Below are positions 2-24,997 of a stretch of DNA of 28,218 nucleotides, piece by piece. How positions within the stretch are numbered: position 1 is the first letter of the stretch; every line of letters begins with the position of its first letter. A model generated the notes under the pieces. That model was given only the letters and a program-made list of their open reading frames with translations. It was not told where the DNA came from and did no database searches. The position numbers and the translations under genes are program-made. The DNA comes from an uncultured Nitrososphaerota archaeon (GTDB lineage Archaea; Asgardarchaeota; Njordarchaeia; Njordarchaeales; Panguiarchaeaceae), in assembly GCA_964636085.1 (NCBI GenBank), contig CAZWPQ010000005.1, forward strand, positions 1 to 28,218, written 5' to 3'.

Positions 2-1834
2 TGTGTTGAATATTGTTCCATCCGCTGGATCGGATATGTCTAGTCTTGGTGGAACCGTGTCTGGCTCTAGGGGCAGGTCCCATAGGTCGTCGTTTATTTC
101 TTGTGTGTAGTAATGGAGGTTGTATCGCAATGTACTTGATGTATCATATATTTCTGATCTAATTCCGTAGTTTGCTTGTGCGGGGACAAAGTTGTATAGC
201 TCCATTTCGTATGTGTCCGTTGTTCTTCCAGTTACTGTATATGTGCTTGATGTGCCTATTAGTGTTTCTGATGCGGATCCTTCATAGTCTTCTATGTTTC
301 TTAGTTCTTTTCCTGATAGGTCTAGTGCATAGAGTTTTGTGTATATGCTTAGTCCAGAGCCACTGTCCTCGTCTATGTCCCAGTTTAGCTTTATGTATTC
401 GTAGTATCCGTTTCCATCATCATCTATTGCATCGACCATCCATATGTCATAGAAGTTTGTTGAGTATGGTGATGCTGCATATTTCCTAGCAAAGTCGTCC
501 CACATTGTTCTATAGGATGAATAGAAGCCATCTACCTTCGTATCCCAGCCATCGGAGCTTGTTGGAAAGTAAACCGATATTCCATGCGCATTTGGATAAT
601 CTCCACTATGATAATAATGAACCACCGCCTTATCTACCATCTGCATTACTTCCTGAGCCGCACTCCGTATCTCGGAATCAGAAATACTATTGTAGATATT
701 CTGTGCAAAGTGATATAGATCCCTTAGATAGCTATAATAGAACGATGTGGTACTACTCCTAGCATTATCTATTTCTGTAGCATATGTATTATATTTTCTT
801 AGCAGTAGATTTGCAAACTTGCTTACCGCTGGACCTAGGTCATAAAATGCCGCGGTTGCGTTAATTGCTGACTGTGTCTCTGCGGTATCGCCTAAATCTA
901 TATAATCCTTTATTGTCTCATATGCAATACAATCAGCAAAGTATTCTGCCGTAGGAACTGTTCCGCTTTGCAGTTTGTTTGTAATATTATTAAGTATTCT
1001 GTCATATTCATATCCATAAGCTCCCTCTGTTTCTTGGGAATGAACCACGAATTTTGCGTAGGGATATAGCGAATATTCCCAGAAGAATTCTCCCATTAGA
1101 CATGCATCAGCACCAATTACGTCGAATATTACTCCATATTGCTCATATATGTATTCGAGTGCATCTCTAACCTCATCTACATATAGGTGGTCACCATTGG
1201 TATCATCCCAACATACGCCCTCTTCTGCACCGCCATGATTCCATAGAATAAGTACATAGTGGTATGCTGAATAGTTATACAGTACATCCTCAATGAACTT
1301 TATCAGTATTTGAGGATCTCCCATGTTCTGTTCTCCCCAGTATTCGTCCGCCCAGGAATAATCGTCATTCCATGTATCGCCCTGTTCTATGTACCATAAT
1401 CCAACCTCATCTGGATTTCTCCTCTCATATTTGTCTATTAGTACAACTATTCTTAGGCCTATGCTTTCGTCCGAACCAACACTTCCCATTTCATTGAAGT
1501 CATATTCTGCATAAGTGTTCAAGTTGTTATCCCCATCCAAGTAAACAGCAAATGTCCAGTTTGCAGGATTTGGGAATACGGGGCCCGCCTTTATGCCATA
1601 TTTAGCAGCGATTTTTTCCCGTACTTCCTCAGGAGAGGGATTCGTCCATTTTATCATGGGAATGTTGGGAGAAACCTCAACCATTTTGTTTTCGTTCCAT
1701 GAAGTATTCTGCGCCAAGTCTATGGTCTTTACCTTTATGGTGCCTGGGTTTACATTATATAGAAGACCTGCTGTAGGCGCTATGAGAATCACTATTGATA
1801 GGAAAACTAGTATTCCCATCCTATCCAAACTCAT
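2..1834 (-). CDS. Secreted clostripain-family (peptidase C11) cysteine protease, 3'-truncated by window edge; not in supplied ORF track
   Basis: Manual translation of the minus strand from ATG 1834 (alternative in-frame ATG 1819). Hydrophobic signal MGILVFLSIVILIAPTAG, then NWTFAVYLDGDNNL, EQNMGDP, catalytic LILWNHGG (His at 1235-1237), DVIGADACLMG (Cys at 1100-1102), HSQETEG, NAHGISVYFP and WDDF. These are followed by DDDGNGYYEY and DTVPPRLDISDPADG (start of an Ig-like module). The same frame is still open at the left edge. Confidence 0.93.
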   Translation of the reverse strand, partial: MSLDRMGILVFLSIVILIAPTAGLLYNVNPGTIKVKTIDLAQNTSWNENKMVEVSPNIPMIKWTNPSPEEVREKIAAKYGIKAGPVFPNPANWTFAVYLDGDNNLNTYAEYDFNEMGSVGSDESIGLRIVVLIDKYERRNPDEVGLWYIEQGDTWNDDYSWADEYWGEQNMGDPQILIKFIEDVLYNYSAYHYVLILWNHGGAEEGVCWDDTNGDHLYVDEVRDALEYIYEQYGVIFDVIGADACLMGEFFWEYSLYPYAKFVVHSQETEGAYGYEYDRILNNITNKLQSGTVPTAEYFADCIAYETIKDYIDLGDTAETQSAINATAAFYDLGPAVSKFANLLLRKYNTYATEIDNARSSTTSFYYSYLRDLYHFAQNIYNSISDSEIRSAAQEVMQMVDKAVVHYYHSGDYPNAHGISVYFPTSSDGWDTKVDGFYSSYRTMWDDFARKYAASPYSTNFYDIWMVDAIDDDGNGYYEYIKLNWDIDEDSGSGLSIYTKLYALDLSGKELRNIEDYEGSASETLIGTSSTYTVTGRTTDTYEMELYNFVPAQANYGIRSEIYDTSSTLRYNLHYYTQEINDDLWDLPLEPDTVPPRLDISDPADGTIFNT

Positions 1835-1865
1835 ACACCTGTACGTGCGTCTAAATTTAGAATAC

Positions 1866-1884
1866 TTTAATATAATTTTTTTCA
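1866..1884 (-). promoter_or_regulatory. BRE/TATA promoter of clostripain gene
   Basis: Minus strand reads GAAAAAAA-TTATATTAAA about 35 nt upstream of ATG 1834. Confidence 0.55.
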
Positions 1885-1887
1885 ATA

Positions 1888-1911
1888 GTGTTCCTAAAAT
1901 CCTAAGAACAC
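1888..1911. promoter_or_regulatory. Imperfect inverted repeat, candidate operator
   Basis: GTGTTCCTA-AAATCC-TAAGAACAC (8/9 arm match), immediately upstream of the clostripain BRE/TATA. Confidence 0.45.
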
Positions 1912-2023
1912 CAATAAATGTCTTTTAGAATCCTATGTTTATCCTTTTATCTTATTCCATTTCCTATTGAAAATTTTGAAGATCAATTTTTGTTATTATG
2001 AAGTTTTTTAAAGAATTTTTTGG

Positions 2024-2045
2024 TACTTATAAATATGTATAAGTA
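2024..2045. promoter_or_regulatory. 22-bp near-perfect palindrome, candidate operator
   Basis: TACTTATAAAT|ATGTATAAGTA (10/11 pairs); contains TATA-like TTATAAAT; 75 nt upstream of the wHTH gene. Confidence 0.45.
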
Positions 2046-2120
2046 GACACCATTATCAACTATTTTTATTATAATTATTTTGGCTCTTCATTTCCGGGGT
2101 GTAGGTAGGGAATAGCTAAA

Positions 2121-3728
2121 ATGCTGATACTTTCGCCAGAGTTGATGGAGGTAATCCTCCATCTATATGATGCACATGATCCTGTCCTTAGGATTGATAG
2201 GAGAACCGCCGAGAAGCTTCGAGACAAGTTTTCTTGGAGAAGGTTATGTAGAAATTTAAAAAACTTAGAGGAGCTTGGATTCGTTCGTTTGGAGTATATT
2301 TCTCACAGAAAAATCTATGCTAGAATTTTTAACAACAATTTCTTTGATGAACTCCTGAGAATATTTGACAAAGCGACAAGAGTAGATTTTGAGCTCTCGG
2401 AGAAGGCTCTCAAGATATTACATACCGCTTCTGTGTCGCCGTATTATAAGGATGTATGTATGATTGCTACGGATCTTGGGTTGACGAGTAGGGGGGCAAA
2501 GAAAATTGTTGATAAGCTACAAAGACTTGGGCTGCTGGATGAAAATATGAATATCACCCGCCATGGTTCCAGACTTTTAACATCTTTTTATGATACCTAT
2601 CTCCGCGAGGCTTTTGAGCTTAAGGTTAATCCATTTTTAAATCTTAGATTGTTTGAAGGAAAAGTCGATAGATCCTTTATTGGCTATCTTAGCGATGTGA
2701 TCAAAAAAATTGTTGAGATAAATTCACGCAATGGTGTTAGACTGAGTAATATTCTTCTTGTAGGCATTGAGGCACATTATTCTCTGACTACACTCCTTAG
2801 GGAAGTCTGCAACAACCTTAGATTGTCTTGTCTTATACTCCCAATTATATTGCCGGAGCGAAAAATATATAGGCTCATAGCAACAGTAGGAAGAATATGG
2901 ACCGAATCTGCCCTTTCGAACCAATATGTTTGTTCGAAATTATCGGGAGAATTATCGGAAACTGAGCTACTGATAGATTTCTTGAAATTAGTATTGGCCA
3001 GAAAGGAAATCCTTGTTGTTGTTTTTGCACCACCCGCAATCTCTTATTTACTGCACTACATTGTTGGACAATGTTTTGAGGGGGAACATAGATTCATTGT
3101 ATTCGTACCGAGACTGGATAATAGCCTACGATTCTTAGAACATAACATAGATGTACTATTAGAAAGATCCAAAAAAATAATGGATGGTTTTATTGAGGCA
3201 ATTAATAGAAAAAGTAAAGTGATAATTTCTTGGAATATCCACTCTACGTACAGATCCTCTGTAACTATTGATTTCAGCCACATAACCCATGAAAAAAAAG
3301 GAGATATACGGAGTGAGGTCTTTATTGTGGAAGACGGTGTCTATCACGGCAAGCCATTCTATATACCCCCCGGCGAAATCCGAGTAAATCTCACAAAACT
3401 CACGCAACTCGGCGCAAGAATCAACGGAGACATCCTTGTGCTCAGTGAACCCATCATTGGACTTAAACCCCATGGGGAGGAGTGGACATCAGATACACCA
3501 ACCTATATCTCCGCTAAACTCAGAGTAGAAACTATGGAAGATGCCCCATCAATACACGTAGACTTCACGAATACACATTATTTGGAGCAACTAAACAATA
3601 CAATACTTGGGGAACTCCACATGGGTCTAAACGATATATCAATAAGAGAAGAACAAGGTGTTATTAGCCCTATACTCACAAGAACATCCCGCTATATTCA
3701 CTTCTGGATAATCGACAAAAAAAAATAA
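2121..3728 (+). CDS. Tandem winged-helix protein fused to degenerate M29 (AmpS/AmpT-like) aminopeptidase domain; probable transcription regulator; may extend to 3804 via frameshift
   Basis: wHTH1 SWRRLCRNLKNLEELGFVRLE and wHTH2 IATDLGLTSRGAKKIVDKLQRLGLLDENMNITRHG. The C-terminal part has M29-like YIPPGEI, INGDILV, LGELHMGLN and YIHF. SD GGTAGGG lies upstream of the ATG. Confidence 0.75.
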   Translation: MLILSPELMEVILHLYDAHDPVLRIDRRTAEKLRDKFSWRRLCRNLKNLEELGFVRLEYISHRKIYARIFNNNFFDELLRIFDKATRVDFELSEKALKILHTASVSPYYKDVCMIATDLGLTSRGAKKIVDKLQRLGLLDENMNITRHGSRLLTSFYDTYLREAFELKVNPFLNLRLFEGKVDRSFIGYLSDVIKKIVEINSRNGVRLSNILLVGIEAHYSLTTLLREVCNNLRLSCLILPIILPERKIYRLIATVGRIWTESALSNQYVCSKLSGELSETELLIDFLKLVLARKEILVVVFAPPAISYLLHYIVGQCFEGEHRFIVFVPRLDNSLRFLEHNIDVLLERSKKIMDGFIEAINRKSKVIISWNIHSTYRSSVTIDFSHITHEKKGDIRSEVFIVEDGVYHGKPFYIPPGEIRVNLTKLTQLGARINGDILVLSEPIIGLKPHGEEWTSDTPTYISAKLRVETMEDAPSIHVDFTNTHYLEQLNNTILGELHMGLNDISIREEQGVISPILTRTSRYIHFWIIDKKK

Positions 3729-3827
3729 TTCATACTACCAATTCATTGCCAAAAATGCTGAAATAAAAACACAAAACGGTATTATCTGGCGGACTACCAA
3801 ATAGCTTACAAAAAACAACACGACGAA

Positions 3828-4781
3828 TTAATACATATACCTCCACAGTGTTAATGGAGATGGTTTCTCGGGCATCGGCTCCAAGTCTCCTTTCTCCAGT
3901 CTTCTAAGAAGCATCGTCAAGGGCATGGCTGCTGTTACTATGGTTATCATAATAGCTGACAGGCCTCTCCAATTACCCCACCTCTTGGCAGAAAAATCTT
4001 CGACCTGTCTTTTTGTCCATACATAATCTCCAGGAGAATATACTGTTGGGAGAAGTCTCATAAACCATCTGTCTATGGGGAATTCATCATATTTTCGTAA
4101 GGCAATGACCCTAGCAAATCTCGCTGTATATTGTCCTATCCCCCTAATACTCTCTAGATCCTCAATTCTATTGCTTAAAAATGCCTTTGACGCGTTCACC
4201 AATGTGTTACTCCTATACCCAACACCAACAGCTCTGATTTTCTCCTTATTTTGAAGTATTCTTTCTGGGCTTGGAAAACAATAGGTAATTACATTATATT
4301 CCTTTATATGTATTACATCTCCTAGGGCCTTTCTAATATTCATAATCATTCTCCAGCCCTGCCTGAAGCTCGCATTTTGCTGACATACCCCTATTATGAG
4401 GCCCTCCCAAAGCGTCGGGACTGCACGCATGTGTAATCCCTGCAGTTTTTGTAGGACTATTTTGAGTAGTGGGTCGTCCCGTATTATTCTGTAATAATTA
4501 GCTATATCTTCTTCCATACCTAGGACATGGTTAGCTACCTTTAGTGATTCATCAATGACTGGTTCCCTGCTGGATTCGGAGAATATCTCTATGTTTATTT
4601 CGTTGTTCTGTCTAGAGGCAACTATGGCGACCCTCATTTTATCCGATGTATATGGGATAAATGCTCTCTCTCCATCAAAATCCCAACATGTAGCGTAGCA
4701 CGACGCTGTTAATTCGAAATTGTATGGCTCTCTTGGCTTTATTGTTGTTGAATATATCTTCTTTACCCTTATCCTCGACAT
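3828..4781 (-). CDS. HhH-GPD superfamily DNA glycosylase (AlkA/OGG-like)
   Basis: LWEGLIIGVCQQN, FPSPERI, GVGYRS, HhH LESIRGIGQYTA and catalytic FPID. Start placed at ATG 4781 behind a GTGGGGGGA SD. Confidence 0.9.
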   Translation of the reverse strand: MSRIRVKKIYSTTIKPREPYNFELTASCYATCWDFDGERAFIPYTSDKMRVAIVASRQNNEINIEIFSESSREPVIDESLKVANHVLGMEEDIANYYRIIRDDPLLKIVLQKLQGLHMRAVPTLWEGLIIGVCQQNASFRQGWRMIMNIRKALGDVIHIKEYNVITYCFPSPERILQNKEKIRAVGVGYRSNTLVNASKAFLSNRIEDLESIRGIGQYTARFARVIALRKYDEFPIDRWFMRLLPTVYSPGDYVWTKRQVEDFSAKRWGNWRGLSAIMITIVTAAMPLTMLLRRLEKGDLEPMPEKPSPLTLWRYMY

Positions 4782-4789
4782 TCCCCCCA

Positions 4790-5440
4790 CTATACCTGCT
4801 TTTGTACTATTGTTCCCCCAGCAGCTCTGACTATATGTTCTACCACCATTTTAAGACTTGAGGCCACGTATGTTCTATCTATTGTCCTAGGAGCATACAT
4901 CACTAATAGTATGTTGGATGTGGATTGTGTGACTTTTGCATGTTCTCCGTCACGGTACACGGTCGCTGAGAATACCCTATTATTGTTGTCTGTGAGTATT
5001 GGGAAACCCTCTGGAATTGTTATTTCTTTTCCACCTATAATTCTCATTTTTTCTGTCCCTTCCGCCGCTCTTAGATGTACGGGGAGCGATATTTTGTCTA
5101 GATCAAAGACGCTCATTACGATTCCGGTATATGCAGATATTATGTTCATTGTGTCTACGATGTTGTTTATTCTATATAATCCTTTTCCCCTCAGTATTCT
5201 CCGGATAAGGGCCTCGCTTGATGGTCTCTCTTTTGTTGGGTCTATTCCTATACTCCAGAAGAACTTCCTATATTCCCTTATTATTGGATCCTCAGGGATT
5301 GCGGATATATCATATTTTCTAGTTATTTTGTTCTCGAATTCTGATAGGAAGTCCGGTATGTCTAATGTTACGGCCACCCCCTCTATTATGGCCCCCATAA
5401 CCAATAATTCTGGATACTTATTTATGATTAGCTTATCCAT
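4790..5440 (-). CDS. Stand-alone B3/4 domain protein (PheRS beta editing-domain-like)
   Basis: YRKFFWSIGIDPTKERPSSEALIRR, INNIVDTMNIIS, SVFDLDKI. Confidence 0.9.
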   Translation of the reverse strand: MDKLIINKYPELLVMGAIIEGVAVTLDIPDFLSEFENKITRKYDISAIPEDPIIREYRKFFWSIGIDPTKERPSSEALIRRILRGKGLYRINNIVDTMNIISAYTGIVMSVFDLDKISLPVHLRAAEGTEKMRIIGGKEITIPEGFPILTDNNNRVFSATVYRDGEHAKVTQSTSNILLVMYAPRTIDRTYVASSLKMVVEHIVRAAGGTIVQKQV

Positions 5441-9084: not shown

Positions 9085-10233
9085 TTACATGTCCAAGCTC
9101 AGTATGACATTTTCTACGAAATTCTTTACTAGTACAACGTCATCCAAATAAACAAACTCATTAATACCGTGGATATTAGTACCAACACGAAGGGCGCCAA
9201 ACTGTATTACTGGCATACGATCAATAAACCATATGCCGTCGGTCCCCCCAAGCTCCACACCAGTACGCACTTTATGCCCCAGTATGGATTCAAGAATCAT
9301 CCTGACTTTTTCAACGATCTCCATGTCTTTGGTTACCCATGCAGAAACTAGTGGTTTTGTCTCAACGTTAAGCTCTATATGTTTCTTTTTTGCGAATGTT
9401 TCTATGCTTTGCTTAAGTTCTTTCGCAACAATATAAATGTCTTCTTCTGGTATTGTTCTTCTATCCACAACTATCCTGCACTCTTGTGGAATTATATTCT
9501 CTGCAACGCCTGCTTCTATTTTTGTTACGCTTAGCCTCGCTGGTAGCCTATCATAATGGATAACAGCGGGATATTTAGACCGTATTTTCTTCTCGTAAGT
9601 ATTTGATAGCTTTATTAGATACTCCACAACTTTCATAGCATCATATATGGCATTCTTTCCTTCGAAGGGATACGCAGAATGACATTGCTTCCCATATACG
9701 GTAATATACGCCCTAACAACCCCACTAGCACCTATCGACAAAGCCTCTGGGCCAACATCAAGGATTATTGCCAAATCGCCTTCCAATTTTTTGAAGAAAT
9801 CGGAGCCTTCTCCCGTTTCTTCACCACCTGCAACGATAAGTATGGGGTTTACTTTGGGCTCCTTACCACTGTTTAAAACCTCATTAAATGCGACCAAAGC
9901 AGCTACTATACCGGATTTATCATCAGCCGCGCCCCTGCCATATAGCCTGCCCATTTCCTCAAATGGTTGGAAAGGGTCAAAATCCCATCCTTCCCCTGGT
10001 GGGACGACATCATAGTGTGTTACGAACAGAACTTTTTTCTTTCCTTCTTTTTCTTTGGGGAATCTGATTGTTACATGTGGTATATTTTTCTCGTCCTTCA
10101 TAATCTCGGCCAATAGGCCTAGGTTTTCTGCTTCATCCGCAATTAGCCTTGCCATTCTATCAAAATTTTTTCTGGTTGTCGATGTCGTATCCACGGATAC
10201 AAATTTCTTTAATAGTTCAATAATAATTTCCAT
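9085..10233 (-). CDS. M20 family metallopeptidase/deacylase (ArgE/DapE-like)
   Basis: THYDVVPPG, LYGRGAADDKSG, GEETG, GKQCHSAYP, GGTDG, NIHGINE. Confidence 0.95.
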   Translation of the reverse strand: MEIIIELLKKFVSVDTTSTTRKNFDRMARLIADEAENLGLLAEIMKDEKNIPHVTIRFPKEKEGKKKVLFVTHYDVVPPGEGWDFDPFQPFEEMGRLYGRGAADDKSGIVAALVAFNEVLNSGKEPKVNPILIVAGGEETGEGSDFFKKLEGDLAIILDVGPEALSIGASGVVRAYITVYGKQCHSAYPFEGKNAIYDAMKVVEYLIKLSNTYEKKIRSKYPAVIHYDRLPARLSVTKIEAGVAENIIPQECRIVVDRRTIPEEDIYIVAKELKQSIETFAKKKHIELNVETKPLVSAWVTKDMEIVEKVRMILESILGHKVRTGVELGGTDGIWFIDRMPVIQFGALRVGTNIHGINEFVYLDDVVLVKNFVENVILSLDM

Positions 10234-18970: not shown

Positions 18971-21900
18971 CTATTTAGATAGAGACCCAGAATGTTCTCC
19001 CTCTCGAGTTTTTACCCGCTTGAATAGCCCAGATATTTTCTCTTTTATATGGACTCTTTTAAGGGGAGTATACTTATATGCTAGATAAATAATCGTCGCC
19101 GCCGTGGCGATCATCAGACCTATAGTTATTGGGCCAATAATATAAATTGTTGTCTTAGTCGTTTTCCACAAATATACCTCCTTGGAGGCACCAAACATCC
19201 CTACTTTGACCCTAACTTTGTATTTCCCTAAATCTATCCTCTCGTATGATCTAACAATACCCTGATAGAGTAGGGTTCTATAGTAGCCATCTTTGACTGT
19301 AGATTTGATTATTAATTCCTTACCCTCTATTGTTAGGTCTGCTGTTTTCGGCGTTCTGAAGTCATATCTTATATTTACTTCGAGTGTAAAGAGTACATGG
19401 ATTTCACCAAGGTCATACGCATCTAATGGATACTCAATGCTCGTATCTATTAGCCACAACTTTGCTTTGCCATCACTATACCCCGTAAATATTGTGGAAT
19501 TTATAACCGTGACATTAGCTATGAATCCGGCATATATGGTCCAGTCGTACACTTCCGAGTCTTTTATGATATATTCAGCAAATAACTGATCGTTGAATAT
19601 CCTAGTTGTACTTTCAGTATTGATTTTGGGAAAAACATTCCCATAGATATATCCCATAACCACACCAATTGTAGAATTCGAGGAATACAGCTTCGAACCA
19701 GTGCTCAATGATGCTAATCTCATCCAGCTCGAGTTCAGCACTATATCTACTGCGGCTATTGATAAGAATTGAATTACATCCGACTCTCTAGCGTATATCT
19801 CGGAACTATCCGCTATCATTATATCGCTGGAACAATTCTGGAACTGAACTACGGAGCCGCTAACAGTGATGTTTATGTTGGTAATATTTGTTTCACGTAG
19901 AATCAGATCCCAATAAACATTATTACTGGTGATCATATCTGAATCTAAATACTCGTAGTATCCCTCCCTCAGATCGAAAACTTTTATCATCACATTACTA
20001 ATGTTTACATTTAGACCCACAGTTGCATCCTCCAGTATTATCGTCCCCTTCCCTATATCTATGGATGAAACATTTACATTATCAGCCTGTACATGTGTGT
20101 TAAATCCAATAACACTTACGCTACCTATGCTTGAATTTGATATCGAGACAGTTGCGAATTCAGAAACTGTGAGATACCACGCCTTAATATCAACATCATT
20201 GAAGGTTCCATTAGCCATTATCGGTATTTCATCTGGAGATGCCGCTGAATCAACATGCATTGGTGATAATGAAGATATTGACATTCTTGTGAATGCAACA
20301 TATACGTTTACTCCTATGGCTGAATCCTCAACAGTAAATTCTGAAGCATATAGTAACATGTTTCCTATCTCAGATTTCTGCACTTTCACGCTACAACCAT
20401 ATGCAGATAGACCAGTTGAATTAGAGTTCTCTATCTCCACGGTTGAATCAATAGCTTGGATATTGTCGAGCGACGAATTATAGATCGTTATATTTGACGC
20501 CCTTACAAACATTGTTCCTATTTTGGAGCCATAAATCTTTATGACCGATCCATAAGCATCGATGTCCAGGCCCATAATGGTTACATTATGCAGATACACG
20601 TTTGGTATTATATATCCCGTAAAGTTCCATTCTATGCTATCGATCCCATCCAACTCTAAATTATCTATATTCATCACATAAACATACAGCATTGTTATCG
20701 AATCAAATATATTCACACTGGTCACGGAGCCCGAATCCATGTATACCAAAGTGTAGCCATATATGTATGTACGCCTCATAGTAAGAGAGGCATTGTAGGC
20801 TATTCCTATTGATAGCAATGCCGAATTCTCCACGCATATGTCAACATCGCCGTTGATTCCCACACCCATTATTGACCATGCATATAAAGAGGAATTAGTC
20901 GCATTTATCCTCGTATTTATATCACCCATAACATAGTCATCTAGACTGAAAGAATCGTAGTGTCCTGGCAACAGCTCCCGCACATATAGGGACCCAGACA
21001 TTATATAGAGCACTGGGCCTAGGAGAGAGCCTGTAGCGTCTATCTTTGAGTCATATATGTATAGGATAGGTAGTGTGGAGCTATCCACAGATACATTAGA
21101 TTTCCACACAAAACTGATTCCATACATATCGGAGTCCTTAATGGTTACATTTGATCCAAAAGCTACGAAGAATGATGATGTCTTTATACCATTTATTATA
21201 GCTTTAGAGTTTGAAACGTAGAGATCGACAAGCATAGAATCTTCCAATACTACGTCACACATATCAAAGTCAAATGCCCAAGATACCCAGGAATCATCAA
21301 TTCGTACCGACCAATCCAACGAAACACCTAGCGTATCTTGGGATTCCCATGATTCTATATAGTTTGGCCTATAGTTCTTTAGATGGATGTTCTTTCCCAC
21401 AAAAGCCATATATATTGTAGCTACGGATTCCCTAACGCTTATAGATACATTCTGTATAGCTGCGATGTATCCACCATAGGAATTGTTAATTGATATATGA
21501 GCATCAGTACCCATTCCTGCTAGGAATGCAAAACTGGATTTGGAGACAAAAGCCCTTGCGTAGCCCAATACGTACAGGGAATCGAGTAGAGAATCATGGA
21601 TATCCAAGATTGCTCTTCCCGACATGTATATTGAAGATATCAGTGAGCCATTAATCTCTACTGTTGAATTGTGAGTTGCCCTTAGAAGCATTACTGATGC
21701 TTCATTAATATCTATTGTGCTATTATAGTATGAGAATATCCAACCCAGCTCACAATCATGTATTCGCAGTTTCGAATTAAACAAAATTATATCCCATCCC
21801 ACCACAATTACATCATTAATGACAAGCCTCCAACCGTTTGTATTATTGATGGTTAAAACATCTATAGAACCAGGGTATATTCCCGATATATTCGCCTCGG

Positions 21901-24900
21901 TGTTATTATAGGTCAAACCAAACCATACCTCGCCCCCCTTAACTATGACTTCGACATGATCGTATATCCTTAACCAATAAATTACATCCGTATTATACAG
22001 CTCTGCATAGCATTCTTGTTTGCAGTCTAGTAATACCATACGAGAATCATTTATTTTGACCGAGGAGCGATCTCTCACAACAAATTCTACTACTTCACTT
22101 GCACAGATATCGGCCTGCGATCCCTCTTCTAGATATATCTGATATATGTATGACTCATTTACAACTATATCAACATTGACTCCATGGACTACAAATACCC
22201 GTGATTTGTTTATTTTAATTTCGCAATCAGCTATTCGGGCTAGGGTTATGTTGGATTCATCCATCGCCAAGTCTATGGCTCCATATATCATGGTGCTTGT
22301 GGATGAATTCATGTAGAGCTCTGTATTGCTCCCTTCGACCCTAACTATTGACGTGTTTACAGCTTGGATATTCGAGGAGTATGTCTCTATATTTGCAATC
22401 TTACTGGCTACTATTCTAATCTCGGCGCTACGTATATGTAGACTCCAATATATTACTTCTGTATTTACTAGGTCGATCGTGGAGTTAGATATAATCAATA
22501 AATATGATGTATAGTTTGATGGTTCGAGTTCGATATTCTCTGAAGAGTCCATAACGTACATCATTATTCCCATAGTTGAGTCTATAGATTCTATAGTTGA
22601 GTTATATATCGTGAGACTAGCGACTTTTGATGATACAATATATATCTCTGTCTTGTTTGCAACTACAATATCTATTGAGGAATTCGTTATGTTTAGTGCC
22701 GCACCCACGCACATAATTGAGAGCCCAGCATAACTGGTGTTTATTTCTCCTAGGATGCCCATTGTTGACAAGTTGTAATAGTCGATAAAACCACTATGCC
22801 AGTTATTTACTTCCTCTGTTATATTTATAAGCATAAGTTGAAGTGTTGAGTTATAGGCATTTATGTCTGAAGAGTTATCGTATACCATCACATTGTTGAT
22901 AATGCCGTCAGTTATGTTTAGCGTGGAATTTATTAGATCAACGATAATGGCTACCGATGAATTCCTTATATCCACCCTAGAATTATTTGTACACATACAG
23001 ATACCTATAACAATGCTGTTTTCAATGGTTATGTTGGAGGCCCATGCTGTTATATTATTCACCAATACTATGGAGTTCTTTACGAGTAAGGAACCATTAT
23101 TCATATATATATTCCCCCCGAAAACAATGGTCTTATTCTCGATCAAATATGTCTCGTTTTCTATGTTTAGGCTATCATAAAATTCGGCCCGTATTGGTTT
23201 TCGGGTGAATAGTGTGGGGTCTCCAAGCAAGTTGTATTCCGCCACAGTTTTCCAATCCAGATAATATCCAGCCAATGTATTCCTTATGCCATGCTTCGTG
23301 ATATACTCAGATATTGCCCTCGCCCATATAGCACCTAGGGTGGTATTGATTTTACTTGTGTGGTCAAAGTATGCCCTTATTGTTCTCCAGACCATCTCCC
23401 CCATTAGGCCACTTGTTACTAGTTCTCCTATATATCCCCAAGCAAGTCTTGATGATCCTAGGAAAGCTATTGCTCCGCCATTTGGATTCAATATTAGCGC
23501 TTCTCCTATTCCATCCACCTCTGCAAATCTACCTGCATCACACGACAATGCTACGAAAATTGGATAGATCTTATTTCTCTGGGATAATGCATCTCCTATG
23601 GAATATGTTTCTGAGAATGTAACCACGAGACTATCATGCGTGCCGTGACCGGTAAATGCGACTAATGAATACCCCTCATCCATCTCCTGTATGAACGTGG
23701 TTCTGGTAAGGTTGCCGAAGGTCTCATATATCCTTGTTATTGTAGCATTCCTAACAAATTTGCTGGAGTACTCTAATAGATATTCGCCTTCTGGATATCC
23801 TACCATAAATGTATCAGTGCCGACGAACAGTACTCTAGATTGTAATGAGTCTATCGGTCTATATCTGCTTATTTTATCTATATACATCATTGCCTCTGTA
23901 AGATTACTCACACTTATCCTACCCACCAATACGTCTGGCCATCCATCAACATTATCGTGCTCTAGGTCTCCCCAGTGTCCATCATTGTTGTCATCCCAAG
24001 TATTGTCTAGGTCGGCATAGTATAAATCTGTTTCAACGATATCACCGTCTATGTTCGGATTATTATCAAATGCACCATCAGGGATATATGCATACCTTAC
24101 TGGAACAACATCTGTGTCTCCTAGGATTATCACAAATTTTATTCCGAAATTCCTCCATGCATATTTTATATATTTTCTAATGCTCTCTTGTCTATCCCTC
24201 CCCTCGAATGCTATATTGTCGTATATATCCTCCACATACATGATCTTTATGCGAAATCCCTCTCTCTCCTTGATCCCCTGAAGCCTCTCTGCAGCTTGCT
24301 GTAATTTCTTTGAGGTTATTATGAGTACATCATATGTTACTTCCTTAATACCTAACTTAGGTGATCTTAAATATGTTACTTTTATTCTCATAGACACAAT
24401 ACGTTTTGCAACATTATCGTTTAGAGCTACATATGTCTGGGTCCTCATGATTAGAAATTTGTGTGGCTTCAATGTTAATGGATCTATGCCAGAACGGATA
24501 TCATATCTTATGTAGCCCAACAAATCCCTATCATGTACATCGATTATACCCCCCTGCTCCGCTGAAAGGTCAAGATTTTTGAACCGCATTGGCAAATTTA
24601 TGAGACGCGTCTCTATATCTAGAACACTAACATTTATTACCCATGAGTCATATGGTAGCTTTATAAGAGTTATATTCATCGGAGGCGGCGCCCTGCATCT
24701 TATTGGAGCTAAATTCCCACTAGGGACATCTATACCGACATAACATGGGGTGTCTGGATACATCAATGATCCGCCAAATCTTAGATCCACAATGAGCTCT
24801 TTTACTCCTGCACTGATCATTGGTTTCAAAAATTCTTTGTCTAGAAACCATCTAGTTGGAAGTCTTGGCAACGCTTTTGATGATTGATCACTATAAGTAT

Positions 24901-24997
24901 GGATAGGCCCTCTATTGTTGGAAATAACATAGTTTATTTGGCTTGGCCAAGTCGATAATATTATCACGAGTACTACCGCGATTGAACCCTTCCTCAA
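18971..24997 (-). CDS. Giant membrane-anchored gingipain-family (peptidase C25) protease with long beta-helical repeat region
   Basis: Signal peptide, then a prodomain-sized region. C25 domain at about 23216-24334 (YDVLIIT, VIILGD, TDLYYADLD, VGRI, FTGHG catalytic His, LSCDAG catalytic Cys, GGAIAFLGSSR, YNLLGDP). About 1250 aa of I-x-N/D-S-x-I repeats follow, then a C-terminal TM and basic tail. TTG start behind a GAGGGTGA SD. Confidence 0.93.
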   Translation of the reverse strand: MRKGSIAVVLVIILSTWPSQINYVISNNRGPIHTYSDQSSKALPRLPTRWFLDKEFLKPMISAGVKELIVDLRFGGSLMYPDTPCYVGIDVPSGNLAPIRCRAPPPMNITLIKLPYDSWVINVSVLDIETRLINLPMRFKNLDLSAEQGGIIDVHDRDLLGYIRYDIRSGIDPLTLKPHKFLIMRTQTYVALNDNVAKRIVSMRIKVTYLRSPKLGIKEVTYDVLIITSKKLQQAAERLQGIKEREGFRIKIMYVEDIYDNIAFEGRDRQESIRKYIKYAWRNFGIKFVIILGDTDVVPVRYAYIPDGAFDNNPNIDGDIVETDLYYADLDNTWDDNNDGHWGDLEHDNVDGWPDVLVGRISVSNLTEAMMYIDKISRYRPIDSLQSRVLFVGTDTFMVGYPEGEYLLEYSSKFVRNATITRIYETFGNLTRTTFIQEMDEGYSLVAFTGHGTHDSLVVTFSETYSIGDALSQRNKIYPIFVALSCDAGRFAEVDGIGEALILNPNGGAIAFLGSSRLAWGYIGELVTSGLMGEMVWRTIRAYFDHTSKINTTLGAIWARAISEYITKHGIRNTLAGYYLDWKTVAEYNLLGDPTLFTRKPIRAEFYDSLNIENETYLIENKTIVFGGNIYMNNGSLLVKNSIVLVNNITAWASNITIENSIVIGICMCTNNSRVDIRNSSVAIIVDLINSTLNITDGIINNVMVYDNSSDINAYNSTLQLMLINITEEVNNWHSGFIDYYNLSTMGILGEINTSYAGLSIMCVGAALNITNSSIDIVVANKTEIYIVSSKVASLTIYNSTIESIDSTMGIMMYVMDSSENIELEPSNYTSYLLIISNSTIDLVNTEVIYWSLHIRSAEIRIVASKIANIETYSSNIQAVNTSIVRVEGSNTELYMNSSTSTMIYGAIDLAMDESNITLARIADCEIKINKSRVFVVHGVNVDIVVNESYIYQIYLEEGSQADICASEVVEFVVRDRSSVKINDSRMVLLDCKQECYAELYNTDVIYWLRIYDHVEVIVKGGEVWFGLTYNNTEANISGIYPGSIDVLTINNTNGWRLVINDVIVVGWDIILFNSKLRIHDCELGWIFSYYNSTIDINEASVMLLRATHNSTVEINGSLISSIYMSGRAILDIHDSLLDSLYVLGYARAFVSKSSFAFLAGMGTDAHISINNSYGGYIAAIQNVSISVRESVATIYMAFVGKNIHLKNYRPNYIESWESQDTLGVSLDWSVRIDDSWVSWAFDFDMCDVVLEDSMLVDLYVSNSKAIINGIKTSSFFVAFGSNVTIKDSDMYGISFVWKSNVSVDSSTLPILYIYDSKIDATGSLLGPVLYIMSGSLYVRELLPGHYDSFSLDDYVMGDINTRINATNSSLYAWSIMGVGINGDVDICVENSALLSIGIAYNASLTMRRTYIYGYTLVYMDSGSVTSVNIFDSITMLYVYVMNIDNLELDGIDSIEWNFTGYIIPNVYLHNVTIMGLDIDAYGSVIKIYGSKIGTMFVRASNITIYNSSLDNIQAIDSTVEIENSNSTGLSAYGCSVKVQKSEIGNMLLYASEFTVEDSAIGVNVYVAFTRMSISSLSPMHVDSAASPDEIPIMANGTFNDVDIKAWYLTVSEFATVSISNSSIGSVSVIGFNTHVQADNVNVSSIDIGKGTIILEDATVGLNVNISNVMIKVFDLREGYYEYLDSDMITSNNVYWDLILRETNITNINITVSGSVVQFQNCSSDIMIADSSEIYARESDVIQFLSIAAVDIVLNSSWMRLASLSTGSKLYSSNSTIGVVMGYIYGNVFPKINTESTTRIFNDQLFAEYIIKDSEVYDWTIYAGFIANVTVINSTIFTGYSDGKAKLWLIDTSIEYPLDAYDLGEIHVLFTLEVNIRYDFRTPKTADLTIEGKELIIKSTVKDGYYRTLLYQGIVRSYERIDLGKYKVRVKVGMFGASKEVYLWKTTKTTIYIIGPITIGLMIATAATIIYLAYKYTPLKRVHIKEKISGLFKRVKTREGEHSGSLSK

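Follow-up and report, generated by a model that had tools for sequence, protein, structure and literature searches.

What does the protein encoded beside a clostripain-like protease at one end of this contig do, and is its resemblance to M29 aminopeptidases real? The window (the whole 28,218-nt stretch of DNA that was analysed) begins with two neighbouring genes, which the sequence-only reading took for a secreted protease and, divergent from it, a DNA-binding peptide sensor built on a dead aminopeptidase. The second product is hereafter called the regulator. The features needed to address its identity are the following:

2..1885, minus strand: 5′ part of a gene for a clostripain-family (C11) cysteine protease (628 aa as listed; Pfam Peptidase_C11)
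2121..3728, plus strand: regulator open reading frame, 535 aa
2121..2369, plus strand: winged helix 1 (residues 1–83), matching the CodY C-terminal DNA-binding domain with Z 8.5 (AF2 model)
2394..2612, plus strand: winged helix 2 (residues 92–164), MarR-type, matching MarR-family structures with Z 10–11 (AF2 model)
2658..3305, plus strand: N-terminal α/β sub-domain of the M29-type fold (residues ~180–395), from structure alignments
3306..3728, plus strand: C-terminal 'catalytic-type' sub-domain of the M29 fold (residues 396–535), from a domain model of the fragment P0007
3717..3725, plus strand: A9 homopolymer in which the regulator frame is lost, with a premature TAA at 3726–3728
3718..3804, plus strand: out-of-frame continuation KKNNSYYQFIAKNAEIKTQNGIIWRTTK* (translation), conserved in all relatives

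The AF2 model of the regulator, built without templates (pLDDT 86.7, pTM 0.86), shows two N-terminal winged helices fused to a complete two-domain M29 fold of the AmpS/AmpT/NicX/CgnB type. The body (residues 180–535) matches M29-fold proteins only, with Z scores of 9–14.7 over 243–276 residues, and the M29-like architecture first suggested by short motifs is upheld at the level of fold. Alignments to NicX, AmpT, AmpS and PepS begin at chain residues 2–6 and model residues 180–182. The M29 aminopeptidases AmpT (2ayi, Z 10.5), AmpS (1zjc, Z 10.1) and PepS (4icr/4ics, Z 10) share this two-domain fold over 265–274 residues, and CgnB and CgnE follow at Z 9–9.5. The structure closest to the body is the dioxygenase NicX (7cn3, Z 14.7, 276 residues aligned), not a peptidase. 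For the C-domain alone, as modelled in P0007, five M29-fold chains were the sole matches with Z ≥ 5 among 48,161 (NicX 11.4, AmpS 7.5, AmpT 7.2, CgnB 6.8, CgnE 6.5), the next match scoring 4.2.

According to the model, this relation is visible by fold only, because no sequence method detects M29. Pfam and NCBIfam searches of the regulator did not match M29, PF02073 matched none of the 21 family members at E ≤ 0.1 and nothing anywhere in the genome, and the regulator falls outside the sequence model of peptidase family M29 (PF02073; MEROPS M29). The comparison with AmpT and AmpS proposed earlier came out divided: Foldseek recovered the two-domain AmpS/AmpT fold in the predicted model (E 4e-5), whereas hhalign against 12 canonical archaeal M29 proteins did not detect the relation (probability 0.3–4%). 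The best probability reached by sequence profiles was 23.7%, and an hhalign alignment to divergent archaeal M29-like proteins spans residues 204–363.

The two winged helix-turn-helix (wHTH) motifs noted from the sequence were confirmed by fold matches of the model (Z 8.5–11). Winged helix 2 superimposes on MarR structures with an rmsd of 1.3–2.3 over 67–72 residues, and residues 92–164 contain both the recognition helix and the wing of MarR-type factors; the DNA-binding domain of CggR is also among the wHTH matches (Z 10.2). At the sequence level, a ZitR/AdcR-type MarR was matched by the family profile at E 0.007, Pfam wHTH-PRTase_assc weakly in 13 of the 21 family members, and MarR_2 at sub-threshold level only, in four of 21. 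The RRLxxNLxxLE helix of winged helix 1 is conserved, as is the G-x-T-x-[KR]-G-x-K-K-x-x-x-K-L pattern in the recognition helix of winged helix 2, a segment among the best conserved in the main clade and different in the paralogue clade. MarR dimerisation helices were not found beside the wHTH, which in the model is flanked by the second wHTH and the M29-type body. Pfam detected no kinase or receiver domain, and by the model and fold searches a DNA-binding output and a ligand-type input domain lie in one polypeptide, as in one-component regulators. The pair of predicted wHTH domains, one with a conserved recognition helix, points to DNA binding that is sequence-specific.

The gene pair assigned to positions 2–3804 is present, but the regulator frame breaks inside the A9 run, ending at 3728, and the stretch up to 3804 is translated in a different frame. 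The C-termini of all relatives match this continuation and run ~26 aa past the stop in the window. It provides the last three β-strands of the M29-type domain, modelled in P0007 as strands 184–191, 194–197 and 200–204 and aligned up to AmpS residue 411 of 413. P0007, a fragment from another assembly, is 100% identical to the window's regulator over 181 aa, fits A8 at this position and reads on. Because its frame is truncated in the A9 run, the window's copy may be defective. That it is a pseudogene inactivated by insertion of one A into an A8 tract would agree with the premature TAA, the continuation in another frame and the read-through in all relatives and in P0007; we nevertheless regard this as rather doubtful, given that there is a single lesion in a frame otherwise intact and identical to P0007, and that a tract length wavering between A8 and A9 is a typical product of misassembly or polymerase slippage. 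In any case, it bears on the state of one copy, not on the nature of the family.

The former active site retains part of its residues:

3375–3377 (E419), 3612–3614 (E498), 3618–3620 (H500) and 3699–3701 (H527), plus strand: degenerate metal site, from a column census and motif register

All of the motifs quoted in the sequence-only reading are present (PPGE 416–419, INGDILV 434–440, GELHMGLN 497–504, PILTRT 517–522, YIHFW 525–529). P-x-G-E, G-E-x-x-x-G-x-N and I-H occur in the same order and spacing as in M29 aminopeptidases, and hhalign to the divergent archaeal proteins pairs PPGE with PAGE and GELHMGLN with AELGVGTN. Unlike those aminopeptidases, which are matched by the family profile, the regulator carries TRT (520–522) in place of DEK, has a variable second Glu, lacks the Tyr loop, shows Y-Q-x or hydrophobic residues instead of H-x-D and bears two wHTH domains at its N-terminus. 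The substitution of DEK by PILTRT and the loss of H-x-D, both noted earlier from the window, are borne out by motif positions and by the alignment of relatives. An M29 enzyme needs every one of its six EEHYHD residues (PMC7023490). This E-E-H-Y-H-D set (AmpS E253, E319, H348, Y355, H381, D383) is not preserved in the regulator, and M29 peptidase activity appears unlikely since DEK, the Tyr and H-x-D are lost.

Calling the domain 'dead', however, was right for these losses and too strong for what remains: in the main clade E419 is conserved in 10/10 sequences, H500 and H527 each in 9/10 and R521/T522 in 10/10, alongside E404/D405, E443 and K449. The second Glu (E498) is kept in the window's protein but in only three of the ten. 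Its distance to H527 (29 residues) equals that between E319 and H348 of AmpS, and the VIA end-points of the alignment (531↔352) place H527 onto AmpS H348; E419 and H527 would be equivalent to the AmpS metal-1 ligands E253 and H348, judging by motif register and by where the alignments end. With E419, H527 and the new H500 conserved in 9–10 of the ten main-clade sequences, the site may still form a pocket for a ligand or a mononuclear metal, and judging by the alignment this pocket of the former site is still under selection in the main clade. The family is tiny: 1.8 billion proteins include only 19 representatives. In its second, paralogue clade all site residues are gone, the fold is kept and the genes do not lie beside peptidases. 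That the M29-type fold persists in this clade without any of the candidate ligands means that, for some of the family at least, its role is not a catalytic one.

The neighbouring gene proved to be of the clostripain family, as had been read: Peptidase_C11 matches the product of 2..1885 (minus strand) with E 2e-36 and 126.6 bits (cut-off 25.8), and the His/Cys dyad motifs are intact (HGG in WNHGGA, DAC in GADACLMG). The protein has an N-terminal hydrophobic segment (anchor), and its gene is cut off by the contig end. Full-length orthologues measure 1,330–1,346 aa and contain Big_7/fn3 Ig-like domains, and one of them ends in a transmembrane segment and a basic tail; the window's protease is accordingly predicted to be a giant, membrane-anchored cell-surface enzyme. 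Translation likely starts at the ATG at 1834 rather than at the TTG at 1885, and orthologue alignments to the listed protein start past residue 17–47. The intergenic region contains three further elements:

1866..1883, minus strand: A/T-rich TATA-like element of the protease promoter, AAAAAAATTATATTAAAG, directly downstream of the palindrome at 1889
1889..1910: candidate operator TGTTC-N12-GAACA, an exact palindrome preceding the ATG of the protease by ~55 nt
2024..2045: near-perfect 22-nt palindrome TACTTATAAAT/ATGTATAAGTA, 91% complementary

A regulator gene adjoins the orthologous C11 gene in all five assessable main-clade loci (the window, L031, L032, L033 and L034), a sample of five informative loci only, from closely related organisms. 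The expected linkage of homologues to peptidase genes thus holds in the main clade but not in the paralogue clade. Similarly, the head-to-head arrangement is genuine in the window but not conserved, the two genes being tandem in three loci and convergent in one. TGTTC-N12-GAACA occurs exactly once in the window, and its extended form TAGTGTTCC...AAGAACAC (1886–1913) abuts the TTG of the protease. L031, L032 and L033 each carry the exact palindrome once, at the same position 5′ of their C11 orthologue, a conservation that could partly stem from shared ancestry; in L034 the copy is degenerate and differently spaced. With up to one mismatch, it was not found in the fetched loci of six other C11 genes or of paralogues. 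The 2.41-Mb genome holds two exact sites, the other being intragenic, and there is no genome-wide enrichment (two sites versus four for a reversed control). The window and L033 share the palindrome despite regulators only 32% identical, their proteases being 88% identical; in total, four regulator types, mutually 30–37% identical, flank proteases 62–88% identical. AAAAAAATTATATTAAAG aligns with AAGATAAATAATATAG in L031–L033 and would act as a TATA-like promoter element of the protease. The conserved features of the locus are adjacency and the palindrome in the protease promoter, not head-to-head order. The palindrome TACTTATAAAT/ATGTATAAGTA precedes the ATG of the regulator by 75 nt, and no copy was seen in the listed upstream regions of other regulator genes.

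The reading that we favour, with a probability of roughly 0.6, is that the regulator is a lineage-specific one-component factor of Njordarchaeota-like Asgard archaea whose M29-fold effector pocket controls the C11 protease via the palindrome. The protein would no longer be an M29 aminopeptidase: the second metal site (H-x-D), the Tyr loop and DEK would have been given up, the first-site residues E419 and H527 together with the new H500 retained, and the former active-site pocket turned into an effector pocket. Presumably as a dimer, the regulator would bind TGTTC-N12-GAACA just 5′ of the C11 gene's TATA-like element and set protease expression, upwards or downwards, in response to a small ligand. 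The ligand would most plausibly be a peptide N-terminus or an amino acid, i.e. a product of proteolysis, with a metal ion as the alternative. The fuller version, a new transcription factor family whose inert M29 fold senses peptide N-termini or amino acids released by C11 and feeds back via the palindrome, is tentative, possible rather than probable.

Other explanations must be weighed against this one. M29 aminopeptidases are obligate elongated dimers (PMC7023490), and the body might likewise be a ligand-free dimerisation or scaffold module, with protease control constitutive or exerted by protein amount. This would fit the paralogue clade, where all pocket residues are missing, yet in a pure scaffold one would not expect (nearly) invariant E419, H500, R521, T522 and H527 at or beside the former active-site motifs, which makes the idea unlikely. 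Three of these residues could instead hold a single metal (E419/H500/H527) in a working hydrolase or NicX-like oxygenase, coupled through the wHTH domains to gene control. Bifunctional enzyme-regulators exist, BirA, PutA and NadR being examples, the best structural match of both the whole body and the C-domain (Z 14.7 and 11.4) is a mononuclear Fe(II) enzyme of the same fold, and the E-H-H set is conserved together with E404/D405, E443 and K449. However, the H-x-D pair of M29 enzymes is absent, the paralogue clade keeps the fold without any candidate ligand and there are no substrate-related genes nearby, and we hold this to be no more probable than a scaffold. Least probable is that the adjacency is not regulatory at all, the protein serving in chromatin or genome maintenance, as a folding or export partner or as part of a variable cassette, and the palindrome belonging to another factor. 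Cassette shuffling would also produce such dissimilar regulators beside similar proteases, and paralogues do have unrelated neighbours. Against this stand the case for sequence-specific DNA binding made above, an adjacency that outlives three rearrangements and a palindrome retained where the regulator is retained. A direct extracellular partnership with the protease is unlikely because the regulator sequence has neither a signal peptide nor a transmembrane segment.

The one-component reading has partial precedents. NicX retains and uses its H-x-D pair. It is a free-standing Fe(II) enzyme, whereas the regulator has an attached DNA-binding module and no H-x-D. NicX/Hpo 2,5-dihydroxypyridine dioxygenase (7cn3, 7cup) has a short connection after the strand equivalent to that of H348, as does the regulator, and is M29-derived without aminopeptidase activity (PMC3831237). 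CgnB and CgnE (6zsv, 6zsu) are M29-derived and bind peptides without peptidase activity, the Zn site of CgnE being disrupted (PMC10070186). These proteins of myxobacterial crocagin biosynthesis act as monomers, in a chaperone-like partnership with a RiPP-modifying enzyme, and have no DNA-binding domain, and the half-site disrupted in CgnE is Zn1, opposite to the half lost in the regulator. CggR/SorC, PurR (PRTase fold), BirA, NrtR and TrmB likewise join a wHTH to an enzyme-derived fold whose old site senses a metabolite; to our knowledge, none of them has an M29 fold. An aminopeptidase fold is also known in transcriptional control from E. coli PepA, an M17 leucyl aminopeptidase that is a DNA-binding regulator, although PepA is an active hexamer of a different clan and fold without an HTH. 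Literature searches pairing HTH with Peptidase_M29, and M29 aminopeptidase with winged helix, transcriptional regulator or pseudoenzyme, found no such fusion. The principle of a one-component regulator with an enzyme-derived sensor is therefore known, and what would be new here, if the model is right, is the M29 fold as the sensor.

Njordarchaeota and other Asgard archaea are uncultured, and their gene regulation is almost uncharted. Seven C11 proteases are encoded in the genome containing the window, alongside further giant surface proteins, a repertoire suggesting that this archaeon lives by digesting external protein. Its place beside a C11 gene with a conserved promoter palindrome makes the regulator a probable new type of switch for digesting protein outside the cell, and so compact a locus, with a single regulator, a single conserved palindrome and a single protease promoter, offers an entry point to the control of archaeal extracellular proteolysis. 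After NicX (a dioxygenase) and CgnB/E (peptide chaperones), an input domain of a DNA-binding protein would be the third independent reuse of the M29 fold, in a family missed entirely by sequence profiles and revealed by structure prediction alone. If true, the regulator would be the first M29 pseudo-peptidase serving as the sensor of a gene switch and the founding member of an undescribed Asgard-archaeal family.

We favour, at a probability of roughly 0.6, a reading of this locus in which the 535-aa protein acts as a one-component regulator of the neighbouring gene for a surface C11 (clostripain-family) protease. In this mechanism a degenerate M29 fold would serve as the input domain, and the regulator would act on the protease gene through the palindrome TGTTC-N12-GAACA. 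The features concerned are as follows.

2121-3728, plus strand: regulator ORF, 535 aa
2-1885, minus strand: C11 protease, first 628 codons, the rest beyond the contig end
1889-1910: candidate operator palindrome TGTTC-N12-GAACA, about 55 nt upstream of the likely protease ATG
3828-4790, minus strand: 320-aa protein (weak HhH match only), convergent to the regulator
4790-5440, minus strand: B3/4-domain protein, convergent to the regulator

The window covers the initial 28 kb of contig C5, part of a 2.4-Mb, 83%-complete MAG (G000). The regulator and protease genes lie head to head, separated by an A/T-rich gap of about 235-285 bp. The genes at 3828-4790 and 4790-5440 are syntenic in a same-genus relative, with 52% and 56% identity, whereas the regulator there is 34% identical and thus evolves much faster than its neighbours. 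Peptidase genes are plentiful in the window, and one for an M20/M28-type metallopeptidase (9085-10233, minus strand) lies 5 kb from the regulator locus. The window also holds a 2,008-aa ORF at 18971-24997.

An AlphaFold2 model of the regulator, built without templates from a 21-sequence alignment, had a mean pLDDT of 86.7 and a pTM of 0.86. In structure comparisons of this model, residues 1-83 resembled a CodY-type winged helix (wHTH; Z 8.5) and residues 92-164 MarR-type wHTH domains (Z 10-11), while the top PDB matches found by Foldseek were PepS, NicX, CgnB, AmpT and AmpS (E 4e-5 to 6e-3). Using VIA-align, residues 180-535 gave Z 14.7 with NicX (7cn3; 276 aligned residues, rmsd 4.1), 10.5 with AmpT (2ayi), 10.1 with AmpS (1zjc), 10.0 with PepS, and 9.5 and 9.0 with the crocagin proteins CgnB and CgnE, respectively. 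The architecture proposed in the sequence-only reading, two wHTH motifs followed by an M29-type body, is thus recovered in the model (wHTH, Z 8.5-11; M29 fold, Z 9.0-14.7), and the Foldseek comparison suggested there for the body returned M29-fold proteins as its best PDB matches. However, the nearest solved structure, NicX, is a dioxygenase and not a peptidase. The C-terminal domain was also modelled alone (pLDDT 85.2) from P0007, a 100% identical fragment from another assembly that keeps the natural C-terminus, and was searched, with no Foldseek pre-filter, against the full set of 48,161 representative chains. Only NicX (11.4), AmpS (7.5), AmpT (7.2), CgnB (6.8) and CgnE (6.5) reached Z>=5, the best score below this M29-fold set being 4.2, and residues 1-207 of the model superpose on AmpS chain residues 201-411.

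Judging from these models, the M29 relation is visible only by fold. Pfam and NCBIfam gave no match to the regulator beyond sub-threshold wHTH, Pfam Peptidase_M29 matched no family member, and the PF02073 model had zero matches across G000. Searches of PDB sequences with phmmer and a profile retrieved no M29 protein, only wHTH matches and FAU-1 at E 0.25, which we took as chance. Comparison by hhalign with 12 canonical archaeal M29 proteins (local, global and domain-only) detected no M29 relation; we regard its alignment of the GEPI block onto the M29 C-terminus as spurious. A search of the ESM Atlas with the regulator returned no usable match.

The regulator family is very small: a set of 5.8 billion clustered proteins contained one match, and another of 1.84 billion proteins yielded 19 representatives. 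In 400 genomes of the phylum, full-length matches were confined to the window's own genus, and three matches outside it span the wHTH alone. A narrower family alignment used as query yielded one genome locus and five metagenome loci with main-clade relatives. Three groups can be defined, namely, the main clade (30-54% identical to the regulator), a paralogue clade (about 20% identical) and a small group, P0017 and P0018, intermediate between the two. Paralogue-clade members (L002/L021, L027, L022 and L023) have about 570-585 aa and the same architecture; L002/L021 is a copy in the window's own genome (G000:C10:15305-16990). The family's best-conserved part in both clades is the block G-x-I-x-x-x-G-E-P-I-x-G-L-K-x(5)-W (residues 436-455, window 3426-3485), and none of the M29 signature motifs corresponds to it. 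A same-genus genome carries a more distant, third lineage (L029:350-2322, on G002:C41) in the form of two overlapping ORFs, 342 and 326 aa long, which may be a split or frameshifted gene. The second of these ORFs aligns with the C-terminal half of the family (hhalign probability 97.8%) and retains E/E/H/H-like residues.

M29 enzymes require an E-E-H-Y-H-D set (E253, E319, H348, Y355, H381 and D383 in AmpS), every single alanine mutant of which was inactive in a Listeria M29 enzyme (PMC7023490). The invariant blocks in 12 archaeal M29 sequences are N-x-P-x-G-E, G-E-x-x-x-G-x-N, D-E-K...H-x-A-x-G and S-x-x-H-x-D. Equivalences between regulator and AmpS residues were inferred from the hhalign register, the E-H spacing and the end-point of the structural alignment. 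A weak hhalign match to eight divergent archaeal M29-like proteins (probability 23.7%, E 8.5e-4, 234 columns) pairs YIPPGEIRV with NLPAGEACI, INGDILV with GEGVIVL and ILGELHMGLN with VAELGVGTN; E498 and H527 are 29 residues apart, as are E319 and H348 in AmpS; and H527 is placed on H348 because the structural alignment ends with regulator residue 531 on AmpS residue 352. Accepting this register, E419 (E253) is kept in 10/10 main-clade sequences and H527 (H348) in 9/10. E498 (E319) is present in the regulator, yet in only 3/10 of these sequences, and a new histidine two residues past it, H500, in 9/10. A conserved [TS]-R-T stands in place of DEK, the loop that carries the Tyr has been deleted (its two flanking strands lie about 12 residues apart, versus 33 in AmpS) and the H-x-D strand reads S-Y-Y-Q-F-I, in agreement with the earlier observation that D-E-K is replaced and the terminal H-x-D absent.

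The minus-strand gene matches Pfam Peptidase_C11 (126.6 bits, E 2e-36) with both its His motif (WNHGGA) and Cys motif (GADACLMG) intact, confirming the neighbour as a clostripain, and has a hydrophobic N-terminus. Full-length orthologues on metagenome contigs have 1,330-1,346 aa, with the C11 domain followed by many Big_7/fn3 Ig-like domains; one orthologue ends in a TM segment plus basic tail. The product is accordingly predicted to be a giant, membrane-anchored surface protease. The TTG listed as its start (1885) is probably wrong and the ATG at 1834 likelier, because orthologue alignments start later, GGTG precedes this ATG and the conserved palindrome abuts the TTG. G000 encodes seven C11 genes in total; the six others, with open frames of 552 to 1,715 aa, lie on contigs C3, C8, C12, C14, C15 and C19 (loci L038-L043), and neither of the two family members found in G000 adjoins any of them.

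Wherever both flanks are visible (the window, L031, L032, L033 and L034), an orthologous C11 gene adjoins the regulator. The head-to-head arrangement described initially holds for the window, but the pair is convergent in L034 and tandem in L031, L032 and L033, regulator then protease, with a 90-110-nt gap. L030 and L035 are cut at the regulator start; they carry the same downstream genes as the window, encoding a 316-aa HhH-like protein and the B3/4-domain protein. In the same-genus genomes, the C11 protease orthologue of G002 is cut by a contig end, and no close orthologue was found in G003, whose regulator contig begins at the regulator. Divergence of regulator and protease is uneven: compared with L033, their identities are 90% and 89% for L032, 71% and 72.5% for L031, 32% and 88% for the window, and 34% and 62% for L034. 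Upstream of the regulator, L032:1-615 encodes the C-terminus of a further Big_7/fn3 surface protein, so that genes for giant surface proteins may form arrays in which regulator-protease units are embedded.

The palindrome TGTTC-N12-GAACA has its sole exact match in the window at the candidate site, where a TATA-like element, AAAAAAATTATATTAAAG, follows it on the protease strand. It is not enriched genome-wide, having two exact matches in the 2.41-Mb genome; the second, on C15, lies inside an ORF and was taken as chance. L031, L032 and L033, which are mutually related loci, each contain one exact copy, which precedes the C11 start by 40-70 nt and is directly followed by a TATA-like element. The copy in L034 is degenerate and has a spacing of 11 nt. 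A search allowing up to one mismatch did not find the palindrome in the fetched loci around the six further C11 genes or around the paralogue regulators. The remaining intergenic DNA of the window is not alignable to the tandem loci, which makes the survival of the palindrome notable. The wHTH2 recognition helix, G-x-T-x-[KR]-G-x-K-K-x-x-x-K-L, is among the best-conserved main-clade stretches and differs in the paralogues, which would fit a shared operator. The candidate site would lie against the BRE or overlap it. An archaeal operator so placed is compatible with activation or repression, so the sign of regulation cannot be read from its position. A different, near-perfect 22-nt palindrome, TACTTATAAAT/ATGTATAAGTA, lies at 2024-2045, 75 nt upstream of the regulator ATG, and was not seen upstream of the other regulator genes compared.

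Other readings of the body are that it is a residual mononuclear enzyme or, conversely, a ligand-free scaffold. With DEK, the Tyr loop and H-x-D lost, M29-type aminopeptidase activity appears very unlikely, and the description of the domain as dead stands for peptidase chemistry. For the pocket it is too strong: conservation of E419, H527 and H500 suggests that selection in the main clade still maintains a metal-1 half-site, or a ligand pocket derived from it. In the paralogue clade all M29-site residues are lost, each inferred position (E419, H527, E498, H500 and others) carrying a non-liganding residue. An AmpS-like domain is found in NicX and Hpo without aminopeptidase activity (PMC3831237), and CgnB and CgnE lack peptidase activity and bind the precursor peptide, one Zn site being lost in CgnE (PMC10070186). 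Given these precedents, a peptide-binding M29 pseudo-enzyme is not far-fetched. For the ligand, the most attractive, albeit tentative, candidates are a peptide and an amino acid. No M29 fold joined to a DNA-binding domain was found in the literature searchable here.

The window copy might be in a pseudogene state, since the ORF ends as GAC-A9-TAA (3714-3728; A9 at 3717-3725) and this homopolymer truncates it, leaving the relatives' conserved C-terminus out of frame. With one A fewer, the frame reads KKNNSYYQFIAKNAEIKTQNGIIWRTTK up to a TAG at 3802-3804, and this continuation is the conserved C-terminus of all relatives and of P0007, which is consistent with A8 at the same place. In the model, this tail supplies the three terminal strands of the M29-type domain, and its alignment to AmpS extends to residue 411. 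The additional A may reflect a slippage site, a real inactivating insertion or an error of assembly. P0007 has a sense codon (Glu) at the position of the TAG and thus derives from a slightly different strain. It could also be that the protease is a non-regulatory neighbour. Proximity to peptidase genes, anticipated for homologues, holds in the main clade (5/5 loci with both flanks visible), but not in the paralogue clade, the neighbours of which are unrelated (DnaJ-like Zn finger, small membrane protein, AIM24, DUF998 and Thy1). Regulators of four mutually distant types are known, three of which adjoin the same protease in differing orientations, the fourth (L030/L035) having its upstream side cut off. 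Adjacency has therefore outlasted both rearrangement and replacement, which argues for a functional tie between regulator and protease.

Taken together, the initial interpretation is largely borne out as to the wHTH domains, the M29 fold and the adjacent protease, though not as to a dead pocket. As a one-component regulator, the protein would be the third case in which the M29 fold has been independently re-used, and through this locus gene regulation and proteolysis in Asgard archaea come within reach of testing.
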